Shown: positions 8,405 to 30,203, counted from the first letter of the stretch. The stretch: DNA of 64,000 nucleotides from Candidatus Peregrinibacteria bacterium (GCA_963708185.1 OY970195.1:1120001-1184000), one strand, 5' to 3'. Notes: a model not told the origin generated them from the letters alone. Numbers and translations are program-made.

Positions 8405-9157
8405 ATGGCTCGAGAAAATCCCGATAACGATCTTCAGCTCTCAACGTATTTGAACTGCGATCCGAAACTGATCAAGGAACTAAAAAACGAACTTGAACCT
8501 TACGGGCTGACTCATGAACGTTTTGATTTGATCGATCTTTTGCACTCCGCGTTGGAATATAAAAAATCCGGAAAAGTTAAAAAACATCTGGAGGCGCTTG
8601 TGGATACGCTCATGAACATTCTCAAGCAAGGTGAAGTTCCAGAGGAAACACCCAAACAGCCGAACTCGATCGTCATTGAACAGCACGACGTTGCCGACCA
8701 GGTTCGCGCAGCCACCGTGGACGTGGTTGAGCTGAATTTTGAAGGGTCGGCCCTTGATACCGCCGACATGATTGAAACAATTGAAACGCTTTTGGGGAAA
8801 TACGGTCTTCAACGAGACGAGCTTTTGTTCGCCGTGTGTGGTGACAGCGAACTCGATGATCTTCTTCGTACGGGAATCGTTTCCTCAATGGAAGTGATGA
8901 AAAAAATCGCTCAAAAAGAAAAGGATATTCCTTCCGACGCAAGAAAGCTCATGGAGCTATCGCTCATCCTCAATGATTTCAACGATGAATTCAGCGAAAA
9001 AAATTTTTCCGATGCAACCTACAAATACGAAGAGCCTGTTTTGGCTTTTTTTCAGAAAGACCAGTTTGACAGTTACGGTACAAATTATTACATGAAGAAG
9101 AATCGTGCTGCCAACCCGCGCAAGACGTTGAGGCTCGTGGTGAAACTGAAATTCTAA
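8405..9157 (+). CDS. Hypothetical protein
   Basis: 250-aa ORF with its own promoter; no family recognised. Confidence 0.7.
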   Translation: MARENPDNDLQLSTYLNCDPKLIKELKNELEPYGLTHERFDLIDLLHSALEYKKSGKVKKHLEALVDTLMNILKQGEVPEETPKQPNSIVIEQHDVADQVRAATVDVVELNFEGSALDTADMIETIETLLGKYGLQRDELLFAVCGDSELDDLLRTGIVSSMEVMKKIAQKEKDIPSDARKLMELSLILNDFNDEFSEKNFSDATYKYEEPVLAFFQKDQFDSYGTNYYMKKNRAANPRKTLRLVVKLKF

Positions 9158-12745: not shown

Positions 12746-13108
12746 ATGGCTACAACTTCACCTTTGGACCAGCAAGCTTTTTCCATCAAAAAATTTAAAA
12801 GTTTATTTTATACCTCGCCGGCACGGCAGTTCATGTCTGACATGGACATCGAACAGGTGCGTAAAGCGATCGAGGATAAGGATATTCTGCTCCTTGGTCA
12901 GCTTTATGAAATTTTGCTTCACGAGCAGGTCACGAACGAAAACGTTATCCGCGATTTTGTGATGACCAAAAACAAAATCCTCGACGGGTTCACCGCTGAC
13001 GCCATGTCCATTGAAAAGAGATTCGTTGAAGCTCCGCGAAAAGAGAGGGCTGAAAAAGCAGAAAGAAAAGAGCAGAAGAAAGCGGAGGAAATTCTCAAAA
13101 AACTTTAA
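12746..13108 (+). CDS. Small helical protein, family S copy 1
   Basis: 120 aa, ends ERKEQKKAEEILKKL*; paralogous C-terminus with 20794, 22305, 24310. Confidence 0.8.
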   Translation: MATTSPLDQQAFSIKKFKSLFYTSPARQFMSDMDIEQVRKAIEDKDILLLGQLYEILLHEQVTNENVIRDFVMTKNKILDGFTADAMSIEKRFVEAPRKERAEKAERKEQKKAEEILKKL

Positions 13109-13137: not shown

Positions 13138-16100
13138 ATGAAAAATTTTTTCCATTTAACGGGCAGGTCTCTTTACGGATTCCAGCAGCATAACCGTTTC
13201 GTTTTCCAGGATGGGGGCCAGACCGAATCCTTCGCGCTTGCAGGTATAGAGGCAGGCCAAGAAAAACAATTATCTCCGGAAAATGGGAAGGAGGCTCTTG
13301 TTGCCCAATACAAACAGGCCAAGGAAACGATCGACAGCCAGGCGGCTCAATACAAAAAAAAGTTTGAAGGGAAAGAGGATGGTGATAAAGCCCAGGCAGC
13401 AATTGAAAAAGCCCGCGGAGATGCTCAAGAAAAATTAGCGGCATCGTATAACCAGATGGTCGGACAGTTGGAAAAAAATTCCGAGACGACGGCAAACGAA
13501 CAGGTAAACGCCATCATTTCCTACCGCAAGGAAAAAGCAGAAGGTAAATACAACGACGCCCTCATCTATGAGACAGTCCCGGGAAAGGCCGGCTTTACAT
13601 GGAGCCCGAAGGGCAAAGTCGGTGCAGATAAAAGCAACGAATGGAACCATCTGGGTGAGGGTGATTTCAAAGTGGCGCTGACCGCAATGATTAAAGCCGT
13701 CTACGTTGCCGAGGGTCCAAAAGCGGCAGATGATCTTGTCAACAAGATGAAGCACCAAAAGCTGGGGTTTGATGAAATGCAGGCCGATCCAGAATATGCT
13801 TTCGGGCAGGGCACTTACCATGATCCTCCGTTGATCCAGTTCAACCCGGACATGGACAACGACGAAAATGGTAACACACGTAAATTGACCGGTCTTGTTT
13901 TCGGTTACGCTCATGCCGCAAGAAACCGTCTTGAAAATGAGGATGCTCGTGAAGCATATTTTTCCTACCTGGCCAGCTCGGGAAAAAAGGCCGGCGCCGC
14001 ACCGCGATCCATGGATCCGGACGACATATTGACTCCCGACCAGTGGCTTGCACAGTCCGGGAATGAAAAATACCTCGGTGCCGCCAAAAAACTCGATGAA
14101 GAAAAACTCAACGAGGAACGGACCGCTCAAGTGGACGATTACCTCGGCAAACTTTCGAACACTAAACAACGTGGAGAATTAAAAGGCCTTCTTCTTGGAC
14201 GTTTGCAGGGAGAAAGCGATCCCAAAAAATGGAACCAGATCATGCGCGAAACTTCCGCCAGTGCATTTGGGATGACCCTTGATGTATACAGCAAAACCGA
14301 ATGGTCTGATCTTGATAAATCCCATCGTTCCAGCATCGATGATTTTGTGAAAAAAGCGCAGGCCAATATGGGGAAATATGTCCTGGAAGAAGGCCAGAAC
14401 CATGACGGTAAATCCGCCGGATATGTTGCGGGCCTTTTGATGAGGGCGGAAGAAAAATTCAAGGACGATCCCGCGATGCTTGCCAAGTATAAAGAACAAC
14501 TCAAGGCTATCACCGACTCCGAAGATCTCAAGAAAAAAATGGGCGATAATCTTGCGAATTCAGAATATTTTTCAAAAAGAGTGGGCGAAGTTGAAGACAA
14601 CTATTCTGCCAAAAAAGATGCCACCGAGAAGCTGAGCAAAGCGAATGACGCACTTTTCGATATCGTCAAGCAGGAGCTGCCTTCGCCGGATAAATTTGTT
14701 GCCGCTGCCAAAGAAGAAAAGGACGAAAAATACAAAAAAATTGGTGAGAAATACCGCAATCAGGAACGCTATGCCGACGACATGATCGCCAAAATTCCTG
14801 CAGACAAGGTCAAGGAACGCAATTATATCCGCAGTATTTTGATCGCTGCCGTAGGCAGGGAAACCGATCCCGATAAAATCAAGGCCCTGGGCGAAGCGGC
14901 ATTAAAAGATAAAGCCGGATTGAACCTTGATCCGGACAAACTTGGAAGCGTTGATTATGAAAAAAACCTCAAGGCTTTTGTTGATGCTCATACCGACTTT
15001 ACCGAGAATGGCAAAAAAATGGACGACCAGTCCAAAAGTTTGGCGGCAGGCTTGCTTTATGCAGCGGAAGTCAAATACAAGGATGAGCCGAATAAGGATA
15101 AAATCCTTGCCGCATATAAAAAGTATCTCAAGGGGAAAATGGATACTCTCGGTAAGGATTCCGATAACCAGGAAGATATTGAAAAACTCAAGTTGAAGCA
15201 GTCTTTGCTTGAGGATACCATCGATAAGGGAACGAGGGATAAAATCCTTGCCGATATTGATAAACTTCAGACAAAACTCTACAACAAAAGCTGGAATGCT
15301 ATGGCTTGGCCGGATACTTTTAAAGAGGACTTTAGCGACAACGAACAACTCATCACCGATAATAAAAACTTTTTAGATAAACATGGAACCCGGGAAAAGG
15401 TAGGCACTTTTCAGCCCGCAAACCGTGAGATCGATGCAATCCTGGATGAGTTTAAAAAAGACCATGCCGATGCGTATAGCAAGAATGAGGAAACTATCAA
15501 AGGAAAAATTGTCGAGTTCCATAAACGCATGGCGAGCAGAAATACCGATCCGGAAAAAGGAGAGGTGATTAAAACCCCTGGAGAACGGCTCAAACTTCTG
15601 GCAGAACTCCAGGGATATCTCTCGAATATGGCTGATGATGGGGTCGAAGAAAACCAGTATATTGATGCCACAGAAAAATATACTTATACCACAAAGATTC
15701 TTGAGGCATCCACAAATATCAATGAAGCTAAAAAGTATGTTCAGGGAATGGCTGAAGGTCTGGGCTTTGACGTCAAAAAAGACCAAAAGGCGATAGATGC
15801 GCTGAAGGCTGTCAATGACGCGAAACCGGAAGACAGGGCTCATGTTATGGCCGAACAGATTGCCGCACTTTATAAAGATTCTCCAAAACATCCTGAAAAT
15901 CCTTTCACGAAAGAGGATTTCGACGATTACAGCCAGTACATCCTTGATAAAAAGACTGCTCCGAAAACTCCGGGCGGTGGAACGGGTGGAGGCAGAGTCC
16001 CGTCCGTCGGACCTTCGGTTGCGCCGGGCAATGGAACTCCGGGAGGAACAAAAGGCCCGGAAATTGTTTCCAGCGTGAGCATCGACATTAGTGCAGCCCC

Positions 16101-16398
16101 GGTTGAAATCAAAATAGATCATAAGAAAGACCGCATGGAAAAACCTCCCCAATGGCTCGCAGGAAAAAGGGATGACATTCTCAAAAAATACAATCAAGAT
16201 GCCAGAAAAAATGATCTCTACGTGGTTCGGAGAGGGAAAGATGAATATGTGGCAGAGGTTTCGCCACTGATAGATTGGGATGGGAATACTATCGTCAACT
16301 ATTACAACAAACCTCCCGAACAAGGGAAAAAACCTGATGCCGGCGTGAAAGTTGCCAGCGCTGATTCAACGGAAAAACCGGATCCGGATAAAAAGTAA
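13138..16398 (+). CDS. Large orphan protein with RxVF leader and internal helical repeats
   Basis: 1086 aa; starts MKNFFHLTGRSLYGFQQHNRFVFQDGG; three AG(L/Y)..A..Y..YL-type repeats. Confidence 0.85.
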   Translation: MKNFFHLTGRSLYGFQQHNRFVFQDGGQTESFALAGIEAGQEKQLSPENGKEALVAQYKQAKETIDSQAAQYKKKFEGKEDGDKAQAAIEKARGDAQEKLAASYNQMVGQLEKNSETTANEQVNAIISYRKEKAEGKYNDALIYETVPGKAGFTWSPKGKVGADKSNEWNHLGEGDFKVALTAMIKAVYVAEGPKAADDLVNKMKHQKLGFDEMQADPEYAFGQGTYHDPPLIQFNPDMDNDENGNTRKLTGLVFGYAHAARNRLENEDAREAYFSYLASSGKKAGAAPRSMDPDDILTPDQWLAQSGNEKYLGAAKKLDEEKLNEERTAQVDDYLGKLSNTKQRGELKGLLLGRLQGESDPKKWNQIMRETSASAFGMTLDVYSKTEWSDLDKSHRSSIDDFVKKAQANMGKYVLEEGQNHDGKSAGYVAGLLMRAEEKFKDDPAMLAKYKEQLKAITDSEDLKKKMGDNLANSEYFSKRVGEVEDNYSAKKDATEKLSKANDALFDIVKQELPSPDKFVAAAKEEKDEKYKKIGEKYRNQERYADDMIAKIPADKVKERNYIRSILIAAVGRETDPDKIKALGEAALKDKAGLNLDPDKLGSVDYEKNLKAFVDAHTDFTENGKKMDDQSKSLAAGLLYAAEVKYKDEPNKDKILAAYKKYLKGKMDTLGKDSDNQEDIEKLKLKQSLLEDTIDKGTRDKILADIDKLQTKLYNKSWNAMAWPDTFKEDFSDNEQLITDNKNFLDKHGTREKVGTFQPANREIDAILDEFKKDHADAYSKNEETIKGKIVEFHKRMASRNTDPEKGEVIKTPGERLKLLAELQGYLSNMADDGVEENQYIDATEKYTYTTKILEASTNINEAKKYVQGMAEGLGFDVKKDQKAIDALKAVNDAKPEDRAHVMAEQIAALYKDSPKHPENPFTKEDFDDYSQYILDKKTAPKTPGGGTGGGRVPSVGPSVAPGNGTPGGTKGPEIVSSVSIDISAAPVEIKIDHKKDRMEKPPQWLAGKRDDILKKYNQDARKNDLYVVRRGKDEYVAEVSPLIDWDGNTIVNYYNKPPEQGKKPDAGVKVASADSTEKPDPDKK

Positions 16399-16410
16399 CA
16401 TCTCTGCTGC

Positions 16411-19400
16411 ATGCCAGAAAATCTCCAGGAACAACTTGATCAGCGTATTGAAAACAAGGAGCAGGTTTCCGCCCTGGATGCTGCCGATGCCTACGCTCAA
16501 ACCATTGAAAGTCACCGCAGGGAGTACATCGCCAAAGGCGGCACTCCCGAAAATTTTGAAAAGGACGAAAAAGCTTTCGTGGAGAAAGCCCGGGAAATCC
16601 GTAATAAGCAGCTCGACAAGATCGGGCTTTTGAACCAGGACCTGGAACGAAAAAAAATTTCCGTCGTCGACAAGACGAGGACCGCTGAGCGAAAAGAACG
16701 TTATGAAAATGCCCAAAAATACGGCTGGGATACAACCGATCCGGACAAAGAGGGAAACATGGACGATTTTGAAGGCACGGGTGACGACAACAAATGGGGC
16801 TTTGGACGAACGGCTCTTGCCGGTTATGTTTCCGGTTTGCAAATGACCGATCCGGCGATGGCTTCCGAAGCTATGAGAAAAGTGCAAGAAGCCTATAAAA
16901 AAACTTCTTCCTGGGGTGATCATTACGTCAGCAACCAGGATATCCGTGACATTATCGGCAATGAGTATCTTTCACAACTGGAGGGGCACCATTTGACGGA
17001 CCGCGCGATGGCATTTCTGGCTTCCTATTTGCGGCAGGCTGATTCTTTTTTTAAAAATTCCGACGAAAACAATACCTATAAAGGTTATGTCGTCGACGCC
17101 ATCGATGACCGATTGAACTCCACGCAGCAACCCGCCGCCCAGGCGGAACATGAGAGTTCCACCGGATGGGGAATCGGCGGGGGCGTCATCGGAACAGCTC
17201 TTGCCATACCGCTCGGACCTATTGCCCCCATTGGCGGCGCTATTATCGGTTCACAGGCTGGCGGCAGTGAGGTCGAAACGTATGCCAGCAAAAACGCACG
17301 TGCTGAGGCACAGCTCAACGCACTTTCAACAATATTGACCCCCAAGGAGTGGAAGGAAGCCTGGACCCAGCGCCTCAAGAACACCCTGGAACCTTTCAAA
17401 AAACTTTGCGACACCATTGTGGCGGCAAATCCGGAATTTACATTCCAAAACCAGGACGTCAAGGACATGCTCGGCAAAAATGCCGACGACCTGATATATT
17501 CCGATGAAACCAAACTCATTGCGGCCAAGGAGAAAGCGCGCGAGGAGCTTCGCGATTTCATGCAAAAGAAAAAAGACGAGTATTCCGGACAGGTCGAAAG
17601 CAATAAAAAAAGCGCTGCCGACCTCAAGGCCAGATACAAGACTCTCCGCATCCCGACGGTCAGCGATGACGAATGGAGCGCTCTGGATACAAGCCTCAAC
17701 CAGCAGGCACAAGACATGGACTCGATCGCTTTTGTTTCCAACACTTCGATGGAAGACCTTGCCGCGATGTGGGGGAAACTGGTGATGGTCCGGGACGGCA
17801 ACGGCCTTTTGCGCAATCAGTTCGACGCTCTGTCGTCACGCATCAAGGATGCGGAAGAAAAAGAGCCGGCCATCGCAAAATTTACCGCCGACAAAGACCT
17901 TCTCGAGACGTACGATCCCAAGACCAAACAGTTCAGCTATACCGCCAACGGGATGCGCTTTGAAAGTGCAAAGGGGAAAGCGCAGGCGACGTTCGGCAAC
18001 CCGGAAATCAACAAAATTTTTGAAAGCAAAATTTCGCCGTTTTTCACCAATATCATCTCAAAGTACAAACTTTCTTCTGATGAGAAAAAGCATGCGGATG
18101 AGATCATGTCCAAGGCCGACAAGAACGATGAAAAGCAGATGGCCGCGGCGAACAAAGAGGTGATGGAATATGTCATGGAGCGTTTCCAGTCGAGAATGAA
18201 AGCAGACGATAAAGAAAAAATCGACAAGATCAGTGCCCTCATTGATCAGGCTGACAAGGATTCGACCTTCAGTTTTGACCATATGCCTTCGGCGGAAGAG
18301 CTGCAAAAGGCTTACGACGAAAAATTCGTTCCGGCGTGGGAAAAAGCCGCCAAAGATTTTGACGCTCAATACGGCAAGGCCACGGGCGAACAACCTTCGG
18401 GCACGGTGGGCGGCGGGTTTCTTGGCGGAGAAGAAACGCCGGAAACCGCTCCTTCAAGCCTTGATCCTTACAGCGACCATTGGTCCAAAGGAACGGACGT
18501 TCCGCTTGATCCGGACTACAAAGGTTTTACCGGCGGGCTGGAAGTCGCCCCGAACATCGAAGATTTGAAATTCCGCGACGTCAACACCCATAAAATTCTT
18601 CTGGCGGTTCCCGGAGGCACCGGAGCCACCGCCAATGAAATCACTCTTTCAGAGCCCGAAGGCACCATCCACAAGGTGGACAGCCTGAGTTTCGTCAAAG
18701 TCAATTACCAGGGCAAAATCTACTACGCGGCCATGGAGTATCTTCAAAAGAACGACCAGTCGCTTATTGCCGAACGGGAAGCCAAGAATGGATCTCCAAA
18801 GATGCCCGGAACTCCGGCAAATCCCGAGGTCCAGCAGGGGCTGCCGAAAGGTCTTGAATTCCTGGGCAAGGTCAACGGCGAATACCGCGACGCCCTGGAA
18901 AGGATTTTGCGCGACAGCGAAAAACCGGGCGGTGCTCTCTTTGACCTGTATTTCAACAAAAAAACGTTGCCGTGCCGTTTAACCAAAGCTCCCAAAGGAC
19001 AATACATCGTGAACTGGGAAGGCGGTTCGTTCACCTACCGTAACCTGAACGAGGTCATGATCGGCATTAACAACGGCTTTTTGCTTCAACAGATTACGTA
19101 CGGAGCGCTGTTGTCGCCGAAATATTACGAAGCTTACGAAGATAAAATCGACAGTTTCAAGGACGACGTCAAAGCGACGGGCAGACCCGGGGAGGTCTAT
19201 TTTGAACTCGACTGGTCCGGTGCCGGACGCGGCGAAGGAAACGCCCAGGTCTGGGCGACGGCACTGCCGAACGGGCTCGTCAACTATCACATCCACCGTG
19301 ATCACGTGGACATCAACGGGGGCAACGACCGCAATGGCATCGCGGGAAGTTTTGACGATTTCATGCAGCAGATCGCGCACATCAAGGAGTGGTCGGAGTA

Positions 19401-19830
19401 TTACGAAGATAACCGCGACGACAGAAAACTGTCCCAGGCCGTGATGAACCGTGAATGGTTCTACGCGCAACTGAATAATCCCCAGACTTTCTACGACGCC
19501 GAGAGCGCCATCGGCCGGCCGGTTTCTTTTAATCTCATCAGCAACGGCGTGATGCAGATGTTCCTGGACTGGGGCGGAGGAGCGGCGCGTGATACCGGCC
19601 ATAACGCGATGCTGAACGTGTGGGCCGACAACAGCGGCAGACTGAACTACATTCTGAATTATAAAGGCAAAGGTCCCAGGGGCGTCGCCAAAGACATCCC
19701 TGAACTTATCAACATTGTCGGGAATCAACGAGCTGCCGTTCTCCAAACCTCACCCGGCGAAACGCCCAAAGAACAGCCAAAAAATACGAGCGGCGTCCCG
19801 GTGGCATCTCCCAATGAAAAAGCGGCATAG
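16411..19830 (+). CDS. Large orphan protein with glycine zipper, SH3b-like segment and duplicated C-terminal module
   Basis: 1139 aa; GWGIGGGVIGTALAIPLGPIAPIGGAIIGSQAGG; FVKVNYQGKIYYAAMEYL; two LDW(S/G)G..NA..W..G..NY modules. Confidence 0.85.
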   Translation: MPENLQEQLDQRIENKEQVSALDAADAYAQTIESHRREYIAKGGTPENFEKDEKAFVEKAREIRNKQLDKIGLLNQDLERKKISVVDKTRTAERKERYENAQKYGWDTTDPDKEGNMDDFEGTGDDNKWGFGRTALAGYVSGLQMTDPAMASEAMRKVQEAYKKTSSWGDHYVSNQDIRDIIGNEYLSQLEGHHLTDRAMAFLASYLRQADSFFKNSDENNTYKGYVVDAIDDRLNSTQQPAAQAEHESSTGWGIGGGVIGTALAIPLGPIAPIGGAIIGSQAGGSEVETYASKNARAEAQLNALSTILTPKEWKEAWTQRLKNTLEPFKKLCDTIVAANPEFTFQNQDVKDMLGKNADDLIYSDETKLIAAKEKAREELRDFMQKKKDEYSGQVESNKKSAADLKARYKTLRIPTVSDDEWSALDTSLNQQAQDMDSIAFVSNTSMEDLAAMWGKLVMVRDGNGLLRNQFDALSSRIKDAEEKEPAIAKFTADKDLLETYDPKTKQFSYTANGMRFESAKGKAQATFGNPEINKIFESKISPFFTNIISKYKLSSDEKKHADEIMSKADKNDEKQMAAANKEVMEYVMERFQSRMKADDKEKIDKISALIDQADKDSTFSFDHMPSAEELQKAYDEKFVPAWEKAAKDFDAQYGKATGEQPSGTVGGGFLGGEETPETAPSSLDPYSDHWSKGTDVPLDPDYKGFTGGLEVAPNIEDLKFRDVNTHKILLAVPGGTGATANEITLSEPEGTIHKVDSLSFVKVNYQGKIYYAAMEYLQKNDQSLIAEREAKNGSPKMPGTPANPEVQQGLPKGLEFLGKVNGEYRDALERILRDSEKPGGALFDLYFNKKTLPCRLTKAPKGQYIVNWEGGSFTYRNLNEVMIGINNGFLLQQITYGALLSPKYYEAYEDKIDSFKDDVKATGRPGEVYFELDWSGAGRGEGNAQVWATALPNGLVNYHIHRDHVDINGGNDRNGIAGSFDDFMQQIAHIKEWSEYYEDNRDDRKLSQAVMNREWFYAQLNNPQTFYDAESAIGRPVSFNLISNGVMQMFLDWGGGAARDTGHNAMLNVWADNSGRLNYILNYKGKGPRGVAKDIPELINIVGNQRAAVLQTSPGETPKEQPKNTSGVPVASPNEKAA

Positions 19831-19887
19831 CAAAAGGATTCATTCGTTTTCCATCAATTTACCATCTATATTCTCACCAAAATTCAT

Positions 19888-20769
19888 ATGAAAAAATTTA
19901 TTTGTTTCAGAAATTTCGCAAACGTTAACCGCTTGGTTTACGCGGCCGGCGGGGAGAAACCATCACAGCCTGAAAATGCCGAGGTGATTCCAAAAGATGC
20001 GGATTTAACTCCGGCGAAACTTGATGAAATTTCCAAAGCCGTCGATAACAATATCAGCGCCGTCGAAGACTATTATAAGGGCGGTGAATCCAAGCTCATG
20101 CATCATCCCGATATGCCGAAGCAGGTCAAAACCCAGTTGGATCAGCTGAAGCAGTTAAAAATCCAGCTCGACCAGGTCAAGGCAAATCCGGCAGGCGCGC
20201 GTCAGGTCCTCGGAAAAATTTACCGTATTTTTACCCAACTTGAAGCACACAGTGAGGAACGGTACAAAGCCGATATCGCATCGCATGATCCTCTTGTCGG
20301 CCTGGGTTTCAGCATCGATACTCCGGAACTCGCACCGGCAGCTCCGAAAACGACCAAGGCTGAAAATGCTCCAGAGACAAAAGAAACACAGCAACAGCTG
20401 GTACGAAGCGCCGTCGAAAACATTGCGCGCGCCGGCGGAGAATTGACCCAGCCCATGCTCGACGCCCTGAAAACCCAATTCAAAGGAACAAATGTCCTTT
20501 CCTACACCCTGAATATTCAGGGAAATCCGGTACTGGTCTTCATTGAACGTTCTCCCGACGGGAAAGGTTTCCAGGCGAAGGGTGTCCGCTACAACGCCGA
20601 AGTCCCTCTGGAAAAACAGGCTTCCTCCTGGGATACCGCAAGTTTCACCTATACCCATTCCTTTGACGCCTTGGACAACTCACCTCCATCCGTTCCCGAC
20701 AAAAGCATTCAAGAGTACGTTTCCCAGGGCAAAAAAGGTAAAAAACTCAACCCGACGGCGCTTGGCTAA
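19888..20769 (+). CDS. Orphan protein with RxVY leader
   Basis: 293 aa; starts MKKFICFRNFANVNRLVYAAGGEKP. Confidence 0.8.
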   Translation: MKKFICFRNFANVNRLVYAAGGEKPSQPENAEVIPKDADLTPAKLDEISKAVDNNISAVEDYYKGGESKLMHHPDMPKQVKTQLDQLKQLKIQLDQVKANPAGARQVLGKIYRIFTQLEAHSEERYKADIASHDPLVGLGFSIDTPELAPAAPKTTKAENAPETKETQQQLVRSAVENIARAGGELTQPMLDALKTQFKGTNVLSYTLNIQGNPVLVFIERSPDGKGFQAKGVRYNAEVPLEKQASSWDTASFTYTHSFDALDNSPPSVPDKSIQEYVSQGKKGKKLNPTALG

Positions 20770-20793
20770 AAACCCTTATCTTCATCGAACATC

Positions 20794-21111
20794 ATGGATC
20801 AATCTCTCCAGGACGAGCTACAGGAACTCATCGAATCTTCTTTGAGTATCGCCACGCTCAGTGACGACAACCAGGCCGCGTTGAAAAAACGATTGCTCGC
20901 TCTTCCTGAGGACGAGATGAGAAGGGTCGTCGAGGTTTTGCGCGGTGAGCAGAAACAGCAGTATGAAGCCATGAAAGGGCTAGTGCAAAAAATCGAGAAC
21001 GCCAGCACCACCCTCAAAAAGACTTTTCTCAAGGAGCGCGAAAAAGAAGAAACCAAACAGTCCGACCAGAAAGCCGACCAGCTCATCAAAAAGCTGGATG
21101 ACATGGATTAA
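20794..21111 (+). CDS. Small helical protein, family S copy 2
   Basis: 105 aa; LIESSLSIATL..RLLALPEDE..VLRGEQ; ends DQKADQLIKKLDDMD*. Confidence 0.8.
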   Translation: MDQSLQDELQELIESSLSIATLSDDNQAALKKRLLALPEDEMRRVVEVLRGEQKQQYEAMKGLVQKIENASTTLKKTFLKEREKEETKQSDQKADQLIKKLDDMD

Positions 21112-21127
21112 GGCGCATGCAGCGGGT

Positions 21128-22186
21128 TCAAAACGGGACGATGTCCCTGATTTTTTTCACGGTCACCAAAAGAAAATACCAGAAAGGCTGGTAAACAATT
21201 TCACGCGCGGGCTGGTAATCCACTCGTTGCCCTCCGAATTTGAGCTTGAAATCGGTGACGCCGGCCCAGGGATGTGTCGGTTGATTTTGCGGAGCGATCC
21301 CGAGAAAATCATACCATTTGCAGCCTGCGGTTTTGGCGTCGAGGAGGGCGCGCCACTGCAGAAGATACGGCGCCATGACGTTGCGGTGTTCGTTGGAGGA
21401 CGCTCCGAAATAGTAGATCGCGGTATCGCGGTAGAACGTGACGATGATGCCCGCCACGATTTCATCTTTATACTCCGCTAGGTAAAGTTTGGCTTCTGGA
21501 TGCGATAAATCGTGACCATGGCCGTTGCGTCCGGGATGTAAGGTCGAAAGCATGTCTTCATAAAATTTTTTGTTGTGACCCGAAAATTTATCGCGCGAGG
21601 TGGTTTGTGAAAGAAGCCGGTAAAAGGCGTCGATATCTTTTACGTTGCCGTCACTGGCCCGGACCGAAACGTGATGTTTTTCAGCGACCCTGATGTTATA
21701 GCGGCCCTTGGGTTTCATCTGCGATAGAAGCCGCTCTTCGGAGAAAGAAAGATCCAGCAGAAGCGTGTTTTCCGGCTGGTAGTGCGCATGGGCTTTGCGT
21801 GAGGGAAGATCTTTCCAGTAGATTTTTTCTTCTTGGGGAAGCGGGGGGTCGAAGCGGAAAAATACCGCATTTTGTTGCCTGGCGAGATCGCGGATTTTTT
21901 TGAGGAGGTGTTTGAGCGCCCGGTGATCGTGGTAATCGGCCAAAGGGCCGCGAGGGCAATACAGCCAGCATTTTTTGAATGGAAGCTCCTGGCGAATAAT
22001 AAGGGCTGAAGCCATTATTATGCCGTTTTCGTCCTCAACGGCGTAACACCAGAATTTTTCACGACCTGCGAGGCTGGTCTGAAATTCTCCCCACTGGGGT
22101 GTCTGGTGGATGGAACCGAGTGGATGTTTCCCCACAAAAGACAGGTATTTCGGCCAGTCATTTTTGGTGATCTCAATGACTTTCAT
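21128..22186 (-). CDS. FemABX-family peptidoglycan bridge aminoacyltransferase
   Basis: HQTPQWGEF, YCPRGP, MKPKGRYNIRVAEK, YFGASS, YDFLGI, FKLKFGG motifs. Confidence 0.9.
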   Translation of the reverse strand: MKVIEITKNDWPKYLSFVGKHPLGSIHQTPQWGEFQTSLAGREKFWCYAVEDENGIIMASALIIRQELPFKKCWLYCPRGPLADYHDHRALKHLLKKIRDLARQQNAVFFRFDPPLPQEEKIYWKDLPSRKAHAHYQPENTLLLDLSFSEERLLSQMKPKGRYNIRVAEKHHVSVRASDGNVKDIDAFYRLLSQTTSRDKFSGHNKKFYEDMLSTLHPGRNGHGHDLSHPEAKLYLAEYKDEIVAGIIVTFYRDTAIYYFGASSNEHRNVMAPYLLQWRALLDAKTAGCKWYDFLGIAPQNQPTHPWAGVTDFKLKFGGQRVDYQPAREIVYQPFWYFLLVTVKKIRDIVPF

Positions 22187-22247
22187 AAGCTTAAAAATCA
22201 GGCAAAACCTACTTTACCATATCATTGTGTCGGTGAAACGAAGAGTG

Positions 22248-22284
22248 TTGCGATATTGGGCTTTTTATAGTATAATTATATGAT
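22248..22284 (+). promoter_or_regulatory. Promoter of orphan operon B
   Basis: TTGCGA-N17-TATAAT; near-identical to the operon A promoter. Confidence 0.75.
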
Positions 22285-22304
22285 CAAATAAACTCAAGAT
22301 ACAT

Positions 22305-22661
22305 ATGGCTGATTACGATCTTATCAAGAATACCGAACTGCGGCTTCTCGTTACAGCTTCGGAAAGTATCCGCAGCTTGAAGGAGCAGGAAATTCAACAG
22401 TGGGTTGAACGTATTGCCGCACTGCCTCCAGAGGGAGAACGGGCGATGCTCGTAGCCCTTCGTGATGAACAGGAACAAATACGCAAAGCAAAACTTGCGA
22501 AAGGCATTACCCCTGAAATGGAGCGCGCGGAGCGTGAAAAGAAAATGGAGAAAGTGTACGCCATCAAAAAAGATTTTGAAAAAGTCGTGCGAATAGAAAA
22601 CGAAAAAACTGCCAACAATGAATCAAGCGCAGAAGCAGAATCTTTACTTAAAAAACTTTAA
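22305..22661 (+). CDS. Small helical protein, family S copy 3
   Basis: 118 aa; LVTASESIRSL..RIAALPPEG..ALRDEQ; ends SAEAESLLKKL*. Confidence 0.8.
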   Translation: MADYDLIKNTELRLLVTASESIRSLKEQEIQQWVERIAALPPEGERAMLVALRDEQEQIRKAKLAKGITPEMERAEREKKMEKVYAIKKDFEKVVRIENEKTANNESSAEAESLLKKL

Positions 22662-22677
22662 ACATTTTTCCCGTTCT

Positions 22678-24291
22678 ATGAAAAACAAACACCTCAAAAT
22701 ATTTCTTCAAGATGAAAACGGCAGTTTTTTCAAACAGCCACGCGTTGTTTTTCAAAACGGAGCTGAAAAACCACAGGAGAACGAGAATAAAGCCCCCGAA
22801 CAGAAAAAAGAAGTTTCACAGCTTGGCTATGATTTTGCCCTCAGTGATGCAAGAAAAGCCATTGCTCCTTATCTGGAAACGAAAATAGAGAATGCAAACA
22901 TCAATGTCGCCGCCCTGAAAGCAAAGGCGGATCTTGATGCACTGGATGTTCGCGTCGACGTTCTTGATAAGGCGGCAAAAGAGGCCAACCTCCAGAAAAT
23001 GCGATCGATCATGGAACGATTTTCCGCTTTCCCCATCGTCAAAGAAAAACAGCAAAAGGCCGTCAAACTCCGAGAGGATCTGATAAAAGATTCCGAAGCA
23101 AAAGCGAAAAAAGCCATTGATGATGTAGTGACTCAATTCGCGAACGTCAAAGGATTCGAGATGAGCGGCGCCCTGAAAACCGACCTTGATGATTACGAAC
23201 AGTCGGTTGAAGGAGGCATGGACATACAGATTGAAGCAACGGCCGGAGAACTCAACACGAACCTGGCGAATCTTGACGGTGCGGGCTTAACCGCCGAAGG
23301 CGCAGCTCTCGACGGAGTCATCAAAAAACTCGACGGAACCGATGTCACACTGAACAAGTACATTGAAAACGCTCTTCGCGATGCCAAGCCGGTAGCGGAA
23401 GGAAAAATCCTTATGGAGATGAGCAAAGGCAAAGACCCTGAAGCCGCCAAACAGTTCATCTCCAAGCAGATCGATGCAAGAATCGCTGCACTTCCCCACA
23501 AAGATGAAATCGACAACGACCGTTCGCGCGGGCAAGAAGCAAAACTGACTCAATTGCGCGATCAGATTCTGGCATCGCTGGATGCTGCAAAAGGTCCGAA
23601 AGACGGCCCGAAAAGATTTACGATCCTGGCGTATTTCCAGGACCAGCTCAACGCCATGGACGTGAAACCAGGCACTCCGGATAATGAGAAACCTTCCCGC
23701 GTCCGGGACGCTTACGGCAAACAGGTTGACCTTGAACTTCAACAGCAAACCGACATTCTGGCCAGGAGAAGGCAGGAATCAGGAACACTGGCCCAGAGAC
23801 TCTTCAACGCCCAGGAACGAGCCAAGAAGGATCCCGACTACAAGGTTGACCCCAAATTGAAAGCTGATGCAGGGAAAGCCTACCTGGCGTTCCGTGAACA
23901 AGAGAAGGCGGTCAAAAAACTGCAGGGCGCGCAGAAAGAGGTCGGTGTTCTTCCACAAGAACCACCGCTGACCAAAGCGCCGGAAATCGGCCCAATCGCC
24001 ACCGCAAAAAGCGTCAAGGATACCATCGACACCTTAAAGTTCAATACCATCGACGGCACCGGAAAAGCCAAAGCCACCATCGACGGCGTTGACGTAACCA
24101 TAACCAAACTCGGACCTCCTTCCTTCAGTACTTCCGTGGATGTTGAAGATAATCCCGATCTCGGCATCACCACCAACATCTCCGGAGACCCTTTTTCCGT
24201 TTCCGAAAGTCTCGCCTGGGCCATCCGCCAGAAAAAAATCACTGACCGAGGCAAAGCCAAGCCCGACGCTTCAGTCGCGGAAAATAAGTAG
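22678..24291 (+). CDS. Orphan coiled-coil protein with RxVF leader
   Basis: From ATG 22678 (537 aa): MKNKHLKIFLQDENGSFFKQPRVVFQNGAEKP. Confidence 0.8.
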   Translation: MKNKHLKIFLQDENGSFFKQPRVVFQNGAEKPQENENKAPEQKKEVSQLGYDFALSDARKAIAPYLETKIENANINVAALKAKADLDALDVRVDVLDKAAKEANLQKMRSIMERFSAFPIVKEKQQKAVKLREDLIKDSEAKAKKAIDDVVTQFANVKGFEMSGALKTDLDDYEQSVEGGMDIQIEATAGELNTNLANLDGAGLTAEGAALDGVIKKLDGTDVTLNKYIENALRDAKPVAEGKILMEMSKGKDPEAAKQFISKQIDARIAALPHKDEIDNDRSRGQEAKLTQLRDQILASLDAAKGPKDGPKRFTILAYFQDQLNAMDVKPGTPDNEKPSRVRDAYGKQVDLELQQQTDILARRRQESGTLAQRLFNAQERAKKDPDYKVDPKLKADAGKAYLAFREQEKAVKKLQGAQKEVGVLPQEPPLTKAPEIGPIATAKSVKDTIDTLKFNTIDGTGKAKATIDGVDVTITKLGPPSFSTSVDVEDNPDLGITTNISGDPFSVSESLAWAIRQKKITDRGKAKPDASVAENK

Positions 24292-24309
24292 TCATTAACT
24301 TTATACGTC

Positions 24310-24615
24310 ATGACCAAAGAACAGTACCTTGCCAACATCCGGAAATTCGACGTCATCAACAGTCTGAGCAGCGAACTCCGCCAGTCGTATATGAATGCAG
24401 ATCAGGTTACCTTTGAAACCAATTTGCGTATGCTTGAACTTGCGCAGGGCGACGTGAAATCCGCAAAAAAGACCTACCTGACGGCGGTGCATGAGGCCGC
24501 GGCCGTGTATGAGAAAGATGCCCAGACGGCCAGACACGACCTGACGAAGAAAGCGGAAAGCAGGGTCCAGACCTCGGATGAGGCCGCGGCCGAAAAACTT
24601 ATTCAAAATCTTTAA
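24310..24615 (+). CDS. Small helical protein, family S copy 4
   Basis: 101 aa; ends TSDEAAAEKLIQNL*. Confidence 0.8.
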   Translation: MTKEQYLANIRKFDVINSLSSELRQSYMNADQVTFETNLRMLELAQGDVKSAKKTYLTAVHEAAAVYEKDAQTARHDLTKKAESRVQTSDEAAAEKLIQNL

Positions 24616-24634
24616 AAAACTTATTTTTAAATCT

Positions 24635-25756
24635 ATGAAAAAATTTCTTCATTGTCTGCCGTCGTTCCGTTCTTCATTCTTCCCGAAGCGAGCGGTTTTT
24701 ATGGGCGAAGTTCCTTCCCAGGCAGACCAGCAGGTCGCAAAAGAAGCCATCAAGGCCAAAGCTCCGGAACTTGAAAAAAAAGGCGAAGCTTTCCAGCAGC
24801 AGCTGGATGCCATGAGCGACGAACAGCTGCAGAAACTGAATGTCGACACGGAAGCAAAAAGCGCCAAAGACGATGTGGACAAAACATTCCAGGACATCAT
24901 GAACGATCCCGTCGTGAACCCGAAGCTCGGAGAAGGAAAGTTCTACACTCCCGGTTCTTATGAGACGCATGCTGATATCCAGCCTTTGCGCGAAGCACGC
25001 GACAACGCGAAAAAGGCCATTGAAAAAGCCCAGGAGGACTGCAAGGAAAAACAGAAGGAAATTACCGACGTCCTCGATCTTCAGCGCAACTCCAGGGTCA
25101 ATGTTGAAGAAGGTTTTAAGACCATGGCCTCCAACAAAGCAGAGATGATGAAAATCCTGGACTCCGATCCGGCAAAATTGAAGATGGAAGACATCCAGCA
25201 ACTCGATCAGAAGTTGAAAAGCGTTACCGGCACCAATGAGTTTCTCACCAATACCATTTACGCCAATCTTGACCAGAATCTTCAGAAGGTCGATGAAATG
25301 AAATTCAAGGACTCTCTTGCGAGCGTGAAGTTTGCGCATGATCTCATGCAGACTGACCTGAAATCTTTCGGCGATACTTTCGCCCAAGTGGATAACGCTT
25401 CTCAGATTTACAAATCTGCTTCAGGTTTTGTGGAAGGCATGAAGCTTCGTTCGCAAGCCAATGCCAGCAACGACGCAACGAAGTTCGACCAGTCTAAGGC
25501 CATGCTTGATGCCGCCAAAAAAAGCGCAGACGGATTCCGTACTATCCGCATCGGCGTTCCGGGAGCCGCTCCCGCCGAAGCCGTGGCACGCGTTGGAACG
25601 ACCAGTGTTGAACATTATGAAGGTGGAGGGAAAGTTGTTGTTGAAAGCGAACCTATCCCGGGTGTAAGAACGGGCGTAACGACCGTTGAACAACCAACTC
25701 CGGGCGTACAACCTGTTGCAGTGGAAGAAAAACCCAAAGAAAAACCGGGCGCGTAA
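24635..25756 (+). CDS. Orphan coiled-coil protein with RxVF leader
   Basis: From ATG 24635 (373 aa): MKKFLHCLPSFRSSFFPKRAVFMGEVP. Confidence 0.8.
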   Translation: MKKFLHCLPSFRSSFFPKRAVFMGEVPSQADQQVAKEAIKAKAPELEKKGEAFQQQLDAMSDEQLQKLNVDTEAKSAKDDVDKTFQDIMNDPVVNPKLGEGKFYTPGSYETHADIQPLREARDNAKKAIEKAQEDCKEKQKEITDVLDLQRNSRVNVEEGFKTMASNKAEMMKILDSDPAKLKMEDIQQLDQKLKSVTGTNEFLTNTIYANLDQNLQKVDEMKFKDSLASVKFAHDLMQTDLKSFGDTFAQVDNASQIYKSASGFVEGMKLRSQANASNDATKFDQSKAMLDAAKKSADGFRTIRIGVPGAAPAEAVARVGTTSVEHYEGGGKVVVESEPIPGVRTGVTTVEQPTPGVQPVAVEEKPKEKPGA

Positions 25757-25853: not shown

Positions 25854-27041
25854 CTAGTTCATCTTCTTGCGAATGAAGGCCGGGATGTCGAGTTCGTTTT
25901 CGGTGGATTTGATCGGCTGGCCGGTGCTGTTCGGAGTAGCCGTCACGCTTCCGTTGCCCATGTTCTGCTGGTTGAGCGACATGTGCTGGCGAAGAACGTT
26001 GGGACGTTCACGAGGAGTGTCGTCGAAGCCCGTGGCAACCACGGTGATTTTGACTTCGCCGGTATAGGAATCGTTGATAACTGCACCGAAAATGATGTTT
26101 GCTTCAGGATCAGCGGCCTCGGTAATGATGCGTGCAGCTTCGTCGACCTCGAACATGGAAAGGTCGTTGCCTCCGGTGACGTTGAAGAGTACGCCCTTGG
26201 CGCCGTCGATGGACAGCTCAAGAAGCGGAGATTCAATGGCGGCCTTTGCAGCTTCGATGGCGCGGTTTTCACCGGTGCCGTAGCCGATGCCCATGAGGGC
26301 GGAGCCGGCATTCTCCATGACGGTCTTGACGTCGGCGAAGTCCACGTTGATCATACCGTGAACGGTAATGAGGTCAGCGATGCCCTGGACACCCTGGCGG
26401 AGCACGTCGTCCACAACGGTGAAGGCTTCGGTGATCGGAGTTTTTTTGTCGATAATGGAAAGGATCTTGTCGTTCGGGATGGTAATGAGGGTATCAACCT
26501 TGCTCTTGAGGTTCTCCAATCCGTCGTCAGCCTGCTGGCGGCGGCGGTGACCTTCAAACGAGAACGGTCTGGTGACGACACCGACCGTCAAGATACCCAT
26601 TTCCTTGGCAATTTCCGCTACGACGGGAGCGCCGCCGGTACCGGTTCCTCCACCCATACCGCAGGTAATGAACACCATATCGGCGCCTTCAATAGCCTGG
26701 CGAATCTCCTCAGCATTCTCCTCGGCTGCCTGGCGGCCAACATCCGGATTGCTTCCGGCACCCAATCCGCGGGTGGTTGCTTTTCCTACGTTGATCTTTA
26801 CCGGTGCTTCAGAATGATACAGCGCCTGGGCATCGGTGTTGATGGCAATGAATTCGATACCGCGAAGGTTGGCCTTGATCATCCGATTGATGGCGTTTCC
26901 GCCGCCTCCACCGATACCAATGACTTTAATGGACGCGACCGGATTCATTTCCGGAATGACCTCAAGGGTCTTCTTGCCCATCTGATTTCCTCCTGAAAAC
27001 AGATTGCGCAGGTTATCTTTTTGCTGATGAGGAGTTGCCAT
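25854..27041 (-). CDS. ftsZ: Cell division protein FtsZ
   Basis: [16 protein letters not shown] tubulin signature, C-terminal LDIPAFIR. Confidence 0.98.
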
Positions 27042-27133
27042 ATATTGAGGAGTAAAGGGTATTTTTTAAAAGCGGACTATAATTGTTAAACGAATTTTGA
27101 TTTATTGTCAATAAAATATTGTGATTTCGCCTC

Positions 27134-28372
27134 TTAGGGAAAAAGTCCTTTAAACCAGTCTTTCATTCCGCCCATCGTCTTGCGGAAATTCAACCCTTTC
27201 AACGAGAACCCGTAGGTCCTGTTTTCCAGCCTGCTTCCCCAAAGAATAAGGCCAATAGCTGTAGCGTAGGCCGGATCGTCAATCTTGTCCACCACGCCGT
27301 CGAAATTCTGGGGGAAACCGATTTGAACGGGCAGGTTCAACGTTTCACGGGCAAGGTCTATGGTACCTGGCATTTTCACGCTTGCGCCCGTAAGCACGAC
27401 CCCCGCAGGCAACATACCATCACGGTGGATTTTGGCGAGTTCGTCTTTGACCAGAATGAAAATTTCGTGATAGCGGGCTTCGATGATTTCCGCCATCATT
27501 TTCTTGGAAACTTTCTGGGTGTCGATTTTGCTCATCAAAGAGAGGTCGATGACTTCACGTTCGCTCACGTCCGTGGGCAGGCAGGTTCCGTATTCGATCT
27601 TGATCTTTTCGGCGGTATCGATGGAGGTCCGCAACCCGATGGCGATATCGTTCGTGACGTTTTCTCCTCCGACCGGCAATACGGCCGTGTGAAGCGTCGT
27701 TCCTTCTTCAAATACGCACAGCGAGGTTCCTCCCGATCCGATGTCCACCACGACGACGCCGAGCTCTTTCTGGCGCTTGCTCAAGACCGCTTCCGCACTG
27801 GCAAGACAGGAGGGGATGATGTCGTCAATATCCACGCCGGCCTGCAGCACGCATTTTTCGATGTTTTTGACCGCGGGAACCAGGCCGGTAATGATGTGAG
27901 CGTCCACTTCCAGTCGGATACCGGTCATGCCGACCGGATATTTGATGCCTTTCTGTTCATCAACGGTAAAAGACTTCGGAATGATGCGCAGGATGCGGCG
28001 GTTGCCGGGAATGGAAACTGCCTGGGCCGCTTCCAGCACGCGGTCGACGTCATCTTCGGTGATTTCGTTGCCGGCATGGGAAACAGCGATAACGCCTTTG
28101 GAATTGATGGATTCGATGTGGGTTCCACCGATACCAAGGAAAACATGATTGATGGGTTCTCCGGCCATTCTTTCGGCATCTTCGAGCGAAGCTGAGATGC
28201 TGTTGATGGTCTCTTCCACGTCAATAATAGCCCCCTTGCGCATACCCGTGGATGGAGCGATGCCTACACCGATGATGTTTGGGACCTGGGACTTTTCTTC
28301 GAGGGTACCGACGACCGTTCTGATCTTGGAGCTGCCAATGTCGAGACTTGCTATGACTCGTGCTTTTGCCAT
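27134..28372 (-). CDS. ftsA: Cell division protein FtsA
   Basis: LDIGSSKI, VDIGSGGT, TAEKIKIEYG; directly upstream of ftsZ. Confidence 0.97.
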   Translation of the reverse strand: MAKARVIASLDIGSSKIRTVVGTLEEKSQVPNIIGVGIAPSTGMRKGAIIDVEETINSISASLEDAERMAGEPINHVFLGIGGTHIESINSKGVIAVSHAGNEITEDDVDRVLEAAQAVSIPGNRRILRIIPKSFTVDEQKGIKYPVGMTGIRLEVDAHIITGLVPAVKNIEKCVLQAGVDIDDIIPSCLASAEAVLSKRQKELGVVVVDIGSGGTSLCVFEEGTTLHTAVLPVGGENVTNDIAIGLRTSIDTAEKIKIEYGTCLPTDVSEREVIDLSLMSKIDTQKVSKKMMAEIIEARYHEIFILVKDELAKIHRDGMLPAGVVLTGASVKMPGTIDLARETLNLPVQIGFPQNFDGVVDKIDDPAYATAIGLILWGSRLENRTYGFSLKGLNFRKTMGGMKDWFKGLFP

Positions 28373-29416: not shown

Positions 29417-29498
29417 ACGGGCGGACAATAGCATTTTCTGCGATTTTTTGCTATAATATTAAGATTTATTTTGTGCACAGCTCTCATAATATTTGCCC

Positions 29499-30203
29499 AT
29501 GGGACGCAGCGATCTGCAAAAACTGTTAGACCTGAAGAAGACCGCCAAGAAGCATTTCTTTGACGAGTGCTGGCCCGACCTCGCTGCGCGCGGTGCCCGG
29601 CAAGCAACCGCCTCGCGGTCGCCCGACCTCGCTGCGCGCGGTGCCCGGCAAGCAACCGCCTCGCGGTCGCCCGACCTCGCTGCGCGCGGTGCCCGGCAAG
29701 CAACCGCCTCGCGGTCGCCCGACCCCAGCGGCAAAGAGCCTCTTTTGATCATTTTCACGACAAAAGAGAAGTCCAACCGCGACCTCGTTTTCAAACTGCT
29801 CGAAGGTGTACTGGTTCTTCCAACGCAAGTCGTGGTGGTGAGCGAGGACCAGCCGGGCGAACTCATGAAACATCACACCGGGAAGATTTTCTGGTTTAAT
29901 CCCGAATCCGGACGCAACGCGCCGAAGCTGGACCAATGGATGCTGGCCGCAGACATGGCCGTCATTTTTGACGAGAAGCAGTCAACGATCAATACGCTCT
30001 TCGATAAAGGCGTCGTGCCGATCGCACACGAAAAATCTCCCCTCCTTGAAAACTATCACCCCAATGAAGAGACCGGAAACAGTTTCACCTACAATGAAAA
30101 AAACCCGTGGGGTGTTTTCGCCGCGCTGGTACGCGCATGCGAAACGTATCACTTTCCATACGACTGGCAGCATATCATCCGGGGCATTCTGAAAGTACGC
30201 TGA
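29499..30203 (+). CDS. Protein resembling the glycogen synthase C-terminal region, carrying an in-frame 3x16-aa repeat
   Basis: C-terminal ETGNSFTY..FAALVRACETYHFPYDW resembles the GlgA end; start ATG 29499. Confidence 0.6.
   Translation: MGRSDLQKLLDLKKTAKKHFFDECWPDLAARGARQATASRSPDLAARGARQATASRSPDLAARGARQATASRSPDPSGKEPLLIIFTTKEKSNRDLVFKLLEGVLVLPTQVVVVSEDQPGELMKHHTGKIFWFNPESGRNAPKLDQWMLAADMAVIFDEKQSTINTLFDKGVVPIAHEKSPLLENYHPNEETGNSFTYNEKNPWGVFAALVRACETYHFPYDWQHIIRGILKVR
29574..29724. repeat. Perfect tandem repeat, 3x48 bp plus partial copy
   Basis: Unit CCCGACCTCGCTGCGCGCGGTGCCCGGCAAGCAACCGCCTCGCGGTCG at 29574, 29622, 29670; CCCGACC at 29718. Confidence 0.97.

Follow-up and report, generated by a model that had tools for sequence, protein, structure and literature searches.

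Candidate Phyla Radiation (CPR) bacteria, also called Patescibacteria, form a large part of the diversity of bacteria and have their life on other cells, and to our knowledge, the delivery of proteins to their surface or to their hosts is largely unknown. In the type VIIb secretion system (T7SSb), LXG effectors are encoded downstream of small helical partners, the Lap or WXG100 proteins. Double-glycine leaders are cut by ATP-binding cassette (ABC) transporters with a C39 peptidase, and the N-terminal extension of ribosomal protein L27 is cut by Prp. SepF and MreB carry N-terminal membrane-targeting sequences. Here, we describe an N-terminal leader motif encoded in a window of 64,000 nucleotides, the whole stretch of DNA analyzed, from a Candidatus Peregrinibacteria bacterium (GCA_963708185.1 OY970195.1:1120001-1184000). 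The motif exists, is N-terminal and under selection, occurs in only one class of Patescibacteria on non-homologous cargo proteins, and is genetically linked to a family of small helical proteins.

The host genome (G000; contig C1) consists of one contig of 1,437,033 base pairs and is 99% complete. Throughout the text, "class" refers to the Gracilibacteria class of Patescibacteria, including Peregrinibacteria/'Altimarinota', and G002 and G004 are genomes of the same genus as the host.

A leader motif on otherwise unrelated proteins

Four proteins of the window, L1 to L4, begin at positions 13138, 19888, 22678, and 24635 with N-termini that read exactly as quoted in the first-pass annotation of this DNA. 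The leader consists of a basic, Phe-rich start, followed by F-x-x-x-R-[L/F]-V-[F/Y]-(M/Q)-x-G-(P)-E-x-P and an acidic, Pro-rich linker. In 53 leaders anchored on the Arg, which is itself present in 51, Phe occupies position -4 in 32, Leu or Phe position +1 in 40, Val or Ile position +2 in 47, and Phe or Tyr position +3 in 50. Position +4 is Met or Gln in 30/53 (Met in 16/53) and is followed by G/P, E, and P, with position +6 divided between Gly (22), Pro (13), and Glu (9) and position +7 between Pro (14), Glu (10), and Gly (8). The distance from the initiator Met to the Arg varies between 5 and 30 residues. The R-x-V-(F/Y) core defined at first pass stands, and the MK(K/N) start that went with it proved generic; the specific part comprises F(-4), R, [L/F], V, [F/Y], M/Q, G/P, E, and P.

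The charge reverses at the motif, as had been claimed for the four window proteins. L1 to L4 carry a net charge of +3 to +5 up to R-x-V-[F/Y] and of -1 to -4 across the next 40 residues; among all 53 leaders, the part before the motif is net positive in 52, and the 40 residues after it are net negative in 44. Conservation in the same set ends within ~10 residues past the motif, revealing a sharp module boundary. Two of the leaders were indeed masked by over-extended open reading frames (ORFs), as the first-pass annotation had noted: a mechanical ORF listing places the start of L3 at 22618 and that of L4 at 24578, in frames that run back into the ends of the small genes upstream, and alignment with 31 further leaders assigns the true Met to 22678 and 24635, respectively.

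The proteins are otherwise divergent, in agreement with the initial description. An all-against-all BLASTP of eight leader proteins of this genome gave two matches only, both inside the first 76 residues or fewer. Among seven orthologs in the L2 family, M1 and R15 are invariant, and the leader is as conserved as the folded part. An AlphaFold2 model of L2, computed from a 7-sequence alignment, assigns residues 1–35 a predicted local distance difference test (pLDDT) score below 50, with no helix, and shows no packing of the leader against the folded part.

A trivial explanation, which we disfavor as very improbable, would be that the similarity is noise or that the start codons are wrong and the leaders untranslated. 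It can draw on the bare four-residue core R[LFV][VI][FY], which is not enriched at N-termini (7 matches versus 6.0 +/- 2.3 in shuffles), and on the Shine-Dalgarno sequence, which is absent 5' of every leader ATG examined. However, ftsZ, ftsA, and fem likewise lack a Shine-Dalgarno sequence and share the A/T-rich YNT-ATG context of the leader genes. By reading of the translations, L1 and L2 have no further in-frame Met until ~70–105 codons downstream. The motif Arg codons of the four window genes (CGT, CGC, CGC, and CGA) and their Phe/Tyr codons (TTC, TAC, TTT, and TTT) differ, and therefore selection acts to conserve the motif at the protein level.

Profile searches speak against chance as well. 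The least circular test used a hidden Markov model (HMM) built solely from 30 leaders found in other genomes (the leave-own-out model), which recovered L3 (E 4.5e-8), L2 (E 2e-6), and L4 (E 8.9e-6) and also found L5, L6 (C1:554719, minus strand, 573 amino acids), and L8 (C1:294974, minus strand, 2064 amino acids). Every match is the N-terminus of a long frame, and the best match to reversed sequences has E 1.9. An HMM of the L1–L4 leaders, run against the genome's complete set of 18,801 six-frame ORFs, gave one extra match, also N-terminal, at C1:199395 (710 amino acids, E 5.4e-5), and the next best had only E 0.69. The longer expression [FL]xxxR[LFVA][VI][FY] has five N-terminal matches versus 1.4 +/- 1.2 in shuffles, with a density per 1000 residues of 0.09 at N-termini versus 0.01 internally. 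Both regular expressions are derived from the same data and are weak evidence, with modest or no enrichment.

This genome encodes 7 to 9 leader proteins, similar in the leader only. The count is given as a range because L7 (K-H-V-F) and L9 (A-R-F-V-F-A-T-G) are 'possible' members found by eye or by regular expression only and not recognized by the HMMs. An additional regular-expression match at C1:603569 (minus strand) was rejected as unrelated: it runs into a hydrophobic segment, and no HMM found it. Using the four-leader HMM and then enlarged models, we searched related genomes, as proposed at first pass, and found N-terminal leader matches in 11/41 close relatives and in 21/151 genomes of the class. 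In a phylum-wide sample, 3/201 genomes match, all three within the class, and none of the 190 sampled phylum genomes outside the class has a match. The further members, the small helical genes paired with leader genes, and the synteny from def to ftsZ are additions to the first-pass annotation.

The def-to-ftsZ locus, its cargo, and the small helical family

The four window leader genes belong to a plus-strand run of family-less genes that is flanked by prfB-def and ftsZ-ftsA and is interrupted by one minus-strand FemAB gene. Scans of the proteins of the plus-strand A1-L4 run with Pfam, NCBIfam, and PADLOC returned zero matches above curated cut-offs. The features are as follows (positions count from the first letter of the window).

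12746–13108, plus strand: A1, small helical protein of 120 amino acids ending AEEILKKL; an ORF matched by the small-family HMM (E 1.3e-20), directly 5' of L1
13138–16398, plus strand: L1, leader protein of 1086 amino acids, no Pfam family; leader at 13138–13206, MKNFFHLTGRSLYGFQQHNRFVF
16411–19830, plus strand: P2, leaderless protein of 1139 amino acids, always next after L1, with a Gly-rich hydrophobic segment at about residues 250–285
19888–20769, plus strand: L2, leader protein of 293 amino acids; leader at 19888–19941, MKKFICFRNFANVNRLVY
20794–21111, plus strand: A2, small helical protein of 105 amino acids ending ADQLIKKLDDMD; directly 3' of L2, family HMM E 4.7e-26
21128–22186, minus strand: FemAB-family gene that splits the cluster (context), Pfam FemAB E 3.2e-45
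22305–22661, plus strand: A3, small helical protein of 118 amino acids ending AESLLKKL; directly 5' of L3, family HMM E 2.2e-29
22678–24291, plus strand: L3, leader protein of 537 amino acids; leader at 22678–22752, MKNKHLKIFLQDENGSFFKQPRVVF
24310–24615, plus strand: A4, small helical protein of 101 amino acids ending AEKLIQNL; between L3 and L4, family HMM E 6.4e-25
24635–25756, plus strand: L4, leader protein of 373 amino acids, converging on ftsZ; leader at 24635–24700, MKKFLHCLPSFRSSFFPKRAVF
25854–28372, minus strand: ftsZ (25854–27041) and ftsA (27134–28372), the conserved right-hand border (context), named from reading of the translations and a synteny search rather than from a family scan

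The order prfB-def-A1-L1-P2, then fem, then small/leader genes, then ftsZ is retained in G002 and G004, and G019 shares the layout from def to ftsZ and has additional genes after def. The FemAB gene occupies the same position in G002, G004, G019, and G011, and the surroundings of the locus include, besides FemAB and ftsZ-ftsA, a Mur ligase and a flippase-like gene. Identity to G002 is 95% for FtsZ, 83% for prfB, 79% for def, and 65% for fem, and 36% for L1, 47% for P2, and 42% for A3. The A1 orthologs are 64% (G002) and 57% (G004) identical and have the N-terminus in common; P2 follows the L1 ortholog at 47% identity in G002 and 41% in G004 and is partly kept in G019, where the L2-A2 pair is also kept (42% and 47% identity). 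In G002, G004, and G019, the slots syntenic to L3 and L4 hold no homolog of these proteins, the A4 slot in the G002 comparison likewise holds none of A4, and the L3/L4/A4 slots in relatives are filled by other leader-bearing proteins. By these sequence comparisons, the leader is retained while its cargo turns over fast. In G004, ftsZ itself lies in two overlapping frames (G004:C5:172641-173730; query residues 4–241 and 266–395), indicating a frameshift or an assembly error.

To describe the cargo, we surveyed 37 full-length leader proteins from 18 genomes. All are rich in Lys, Glu, and Asp (19–37%), 34/37 lack a hydrophobic 19-mer above 1.6 on the Kyte-Doolittle scale, and none has a Sec signal. 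Several are giants of 1843 to 2169 amino acids. Only three carry any Pfam domain: in this genome, L7 matches GDSL/SGNH below the curated cut-off, an 849-amino-acid protein of G040 has Phage_lysozyme2 and GDSL_2 (SGNH) domains, and a 1653-amino-acid protein of G004 (leader E 1.5e-5) has a GGDEF domain (E 5.6e-15). NCBIfam places diguanylate-cyclase models on one member and matches no other, and PHROGs gives five unnamed families with one member each. A phmmer search of L6 and the 849-amino-acid G040 protein against the PDB returned nothing useful, and matches in the ESM Atlas are only to unnamed clusters from Peregrinibacteria, Altimarinota, and Absconditibacteriota. L2 has only nine relatives among 1.84 billion cluster representatives; its AlphaFold2 model (mean pLDDT 63) builds a bundle of helices and a sheet of four strands past residue 35 and has no Foldseek match in the PDB at E <=0.001. 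Cysteine depletion was considered as a hint of secretion and discarded, with 0–0.5% Cys in leader proteins corresponding to the unremarkable 18th–42nd percentile of 1020 ORFs.

The same survey bears on an explanation by descent, namely that the leader is the inherited N-terminal segment of one old, diverged paralog family, with a structural role such as capping or oligomerization and no addressing function. The window genes form tandem cassettes, consistent with duplication, and all cargo proteins share the K/E/D-rich composition and a similar architecture. However, their bodies have no detectable similarity, whereas the 25-residue leader is still recognizable across the class, the leader precedes different folds (SGNH, lysozyme-like, and GGDEF), and in the L2 model, it is not packed against the folded part. 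We consider common descent without addressing unlikely.

Four leaderless K/E-rich proteins of 532–1097 amino acids, at C1:693397, 114595(-), 885666(-), and 451658(-), begin MAGEQP, MAGEQP, MAENQKNP, and MAGDKQKP. In-frame stops lie just upstream of these starts, which resemble the post-motif sequence MAGPEKP. The leaderless P2 reaches a Kyte-Doolittle maximum of 1.59 at residue 262, within a Gly-rich, glycine-zipper-like hydrophobic stretch (GWGIGGGVIGTALAIPLGPIAPIGGAIIGSQAGG, residues ~250–285) that is the sole near-membrane-like segment of the cluster.

The small helical proteins A1 to A4 are paralogs of ~100 amino acids that end in A-E-x-L-[L/I]-x-x-L. Their profile, searched against the whole genome, finds exactly these four and the C-terminal halves of two longer proteins. 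In this genome, every one of the four stand-alone small genes adjoins a leader gene, with 16–29 nucleotides between the stop of a small gene and the next leader ATG. The alternation of small and leader genes recurs in relatives, sometimes with overlapping stop and start codons, and on contig C5 of G040, a leader gene begins 11 nucleotides after a small gene; among 24 class-level leader loci, five have a small gene on the same strand within 0.6 kb upstream. BLAST clustering of 3-kb leader loci revealed no recurrent neighbor gene common to at least three loci. A3 has 13 orthologs at 46–66% identity, and its AlphaFold2 model, a small N-terminal helical bundle followed by a long helix (residues 70–117; mean pLDDT 77.6), has no Foldseek match in the PDB at E <=0.001. 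A complex prediction for A3 with the L3 leader scored 0.00 against a mark of 0.32, with controls not run, and is evidence neither way.

Three further observations touch this family. The protein at C1:695164-695793, unannotated and 209 amino acids long, joins a low-complexity N-terminus to a C-terminal 115-residue stretch of the small-protein family. Its conservation is high, with 253 clusters and 64–90% identity among the 120 listed, and it may represent the ancestral, housekeeping form of the A1–A4 family. The N-terminus of A1 and its orthologs (window 12746-12835) reads F-S-I-x-x-F-x-K-x-F-...-A-R-Q-[F/Y]-M, loosely like a degenerate leader, and is missed by every leader HMM. At C1:336420-340217, an 84-amino-acid protein precedes a K/E-rich protein of 1177 amino acids that starts MPPNQEQ, an arrangement like the small/large cassettes and without a leader.

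Elsewhere in the window, the ORFs at 325-4371 (-), 8405-9157 (+), 29493-30203 (+), and 33366-35156 (-) match no Pfam family at the thresholds applied; the 1348-amino-acid one is among the window's largest.

Possible functions of the leader

A conserved, disordered peptide of ~25 residues, joined by a flexible linker to unrelated, quickly replaced cargo and co-encoded with a small-protein family, suggests a tag that one shared partner recognizes, and we hold it very probable that the motif genuinely serves as some kind of recognition tag and is under selection. Of the functions first offered for it, the analysis upholds a selected, translated N-terminal motif on non-homologous proteins and singles out none of the three options of targeting signal, partner-binding β-strand, or cleavage site.

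We rank first, and hold tentatively as a plausible function, a non-Sec signal for export or surface delivery. This ranking follows from cargo of the cell-wall-hydrolase type without a Sec signal, from the turnover and giant size typical of surface and host-interaction proteins, and from the adaptor-like small neighbors. In such a mechanism, the leader would be a lineage-specific N-terminal short linear motif that tags unrelated, fast-evolving proteins for one common receptor; tagged cargo would be exported or delivered to the surface by a non-Sec route, and the adjacent AExLLxxL small helical proteins would act as adaptors or chaperones. We infer the reading of the tag by a receptor, a destination outside the cytoplasmic membrane, and the assistance of the small proteins. 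A fuller version, which we put forward as rather speculative, posits an undescribed Sec- and Tat-independent route for export or host delivery, limited to the Gracilibacteria/Peregrinibacteria class. This route would carry effectors and surface proteins that evolve fast (peptidoglycan hydrolases, esterases, a diguanylate cyclase, and giants), its adaptors would be the AExLLxxL proteins, and a Met after the motif would give leaderless cytosolic isoforms.

Several points weigh against export. No translocon, receptor, or protease was identified for the leader, and the cluster contains no gene for a membrane protein or an ATPase; dedicated secretion substrates are usually encoded near their own machinery. 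The GGDEF domain, carried by the G004 leader protein, normally works in the cytoplasm. The argument from extracellular enzymes rests on very few cases because only 3/37 proteins have a Pfam domain. The constant position of the locus by ftsZ/ftsA, femAB, and mur genes is equally in line with a cytoplasmic role related to division. Co-occurrence of the small family with the leader is modest, in 13/21 leader-positive versus 46/130 leader-negative genomes, which are kin and not independent and were counted with a model that also matches the conserved, housekeeping-like protein of 209 amino acids. Finally, the leave-own-out model missed L1 at E <10; another leader alignment gives L1 E 6.8e-9, and the L1 orthologs in G002 and G004 retain K-R-L-A-F and K-R-L-V-Y.

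Several of these points speak for a role inside the cell, a possible but somewhat unlikely alternative in our estimate. The basic, Phe-rich N-terminus would bind the inner membrane face or a cytoplasmic hub, for example, the divisome or the cell-wall synthesis machinery, with the acidic linker as a spacer, so that K/E-rich coiled-coil scaffolds are held at the envelope. Such docking is in line with a charged, aromatic N-terminus and an acidic linker reminiscent of SepF and MreB, with a locus fixed between def and ftsZ-ftsA and near FemAB, Mur ligase, and flippase-like genes, with GGDEF on one cargo, and with the lack of a transmembrane segment in 34/37 proteins and of any export machinery found. 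On the other hand, a near-invariant Arg and [L/F]-V-[F/Y]-x-x-G-x-E-x-P are more specific than generic amphipathic lipid binding, and Pro residues, by reading, interrupt the putative helix in L4. Lysozyme- and SGNH-type cargo has no obvious intracellular substrate, turnover is extreme compared with FtsZ and its neighbors, which is unusual for core division proteins, and the members at C1:199395, 554719, and 294974 are encoded far from the division locus.

Export and docking are each compatible with a pro-peptide removed by a protease, in which R-[L/F]-V-[F/Y] would be the cleavage site and the mature protein would start at M/Q-A-G-P-E. Two observations fit: the sharp boundary at which conservation is gone ~10 residues past the motif, and the four leaderless K/E-rich proteins that start like the post-motif MAGPEKP. 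Yet there is no candidate protease, with neither Prp nor C39 found in the genome; G-G is not conserved, positions +6 and +7 being G, P, or E; and the Met at +4 in 16/53 leaders could be an alternative start codon or a plain hydrophobic position. We judge cleavage improbable.

A tag specific to the class would allow a whole functional set of 'hypothetical' proteins to be listed by sequence. In the present case, 7 to 9 proteins per genome that are unrelated in other respects bear it, with cell-wall hydrolases and giants among them, and it is paired with a dedicated small-protein family. The leader peptide, variants of it mutated in R and V-F, and the small partner protein are reagents for finding the receptor or route. 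If a divisome or membrane tether were true, the leader would define a new set of envelope-associated scaffolds in bacteria that lack most known division factors.

Comparison with known signals and systems

With the hydrophobic region (h-region) missing, Sec, Tat, and lipoprotein signals are all excluded for the leader. The maximum Kyte-Doolittle value of a 19-mer is 0.67–1.03 in L1–L4 and never falls within the leader, which disposes of a Sec type I signal; ordinary Sec signals occur, by reading, elsewhere in this genome. Reading of the 53 leaders revealed no lipobox and no prepilin-type G-F-T-L-I-E, and true prepilins with a prepilin motif are encoded at C1:194-196 kb. The first-pass statement that h-region, lipobox, and prepilin motif are lacking is thereby confirmed. 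The leader resembles a twin-arginine translocation (Tat) signal in having an Arg and two hydrophobic residues near the N-terminus, with K-R in 17/53 leaders and R-R in L5. It differs in that no uncharged h-region follows the motif and the genome has no TatC above the cut-off, the search having returned a 16.7-bit fragment with two stops.

Peptidase-processed leaders and compartment-targeting sequences were also considered. Like a double-glycine leader, the substrate of a peptidase-containing ABC transporter, the motif is a short N-terminal leader without an h-region, and G-G follows it in L1 and L2; G-G is not conserved, and the C39 peptidase family PF03412 has 0 matches in the genome. Processing by Prp was set aside with 0 matches to PF04327 in the bacterium's own genome, and encapsulin or microcompartment targeting with 0 matches to the shell families PF04454 and PF00936.

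Parts of a type IV secretion system (T4SS) are present in the genome. An orphan ATPase of 908 amino acids (C1:420609-423335), with an N-terminal transmembrane segment and domains of the type IV coupling protein (T4CP)/VirD4 type (DUF87, TraG-D_C, T4SS-DNA_transf, and TrwB_AAD_bind), is flanked by a YqgF-like gene and pgk-like genes and has no T4SS neighbors. VirB4-like ORFs, possibly split into 370- and 566-amino-acid frames, lie by gyrA at C1:343521-346455 (AAA_10, 42.6 bits summed; CagE_TrbE_VirB weak). The T4CP-like and VirB4-like ORFs are both far from any leader gene. T4CP homologs are reported in 2,918 Patescibacteria genomes and T4SS parts as widespread, without conjugation components (PMC12102498). 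We do not link these parts to the leader because they are distant from leader genes and spread far more widely than one class. We found no published description of the motif or of the small family in full-text searches of the literature (including PMC4736985, PMC12102498, and PMC8080830); supplementary tables, outside this search, might list the genes.

In its brief N-terminus, basic and rich in Phe, its flexible acidic linker, and its genes beside ftsZ-ftsA, the leader system recalls SepF and MreB. In contrast to these, the leader has a specific R-[L/F]-V-[F/Y]-x-x-G-x-E-x-P core and non-homologous cargo that includes hydrolases and giants, and Pfam and NCBIfam scans of the window proteins found no SepF- or MreB-like domain. 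Its pattern of charged and aromatic residues fits a membrane-targeting amphipathic helix, and AlphaFold2 gives no helix for residues 1–35 of L2.

The likeness to T7SSb lies in cargo that varies and evolves fast, with a conserved N-terminal part for trafficking and without a Sec signal, and in all-helical proteins of ~100 amino acids encoded right beside the cargo genes. The small-protein profile has its best, weak match in the PDB to the WXG100-like 3gvm (E 0.067). The leader differs as a disordered motif of ~25 residues from the helical LXG domain of ~200 residues, and the small proteins consist of a bundle and one long helix rather than a plain hairpin. A T7SS substrate was rejected on the genome content: PF01580 matches one ordinary FtsK (758-amino-acid frame) and, weakly, one T4CP-like protein, there is no EssC, and the best match to WXG100 (PF06013) in the genome, at E 0.103, is below the cut-off. 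The leader matches no tested family in its sequence class, its taxonomic range, and its missing machinery, yet it is of the kind formed by an N-terminal addressing motif with an adjacent adaptor.

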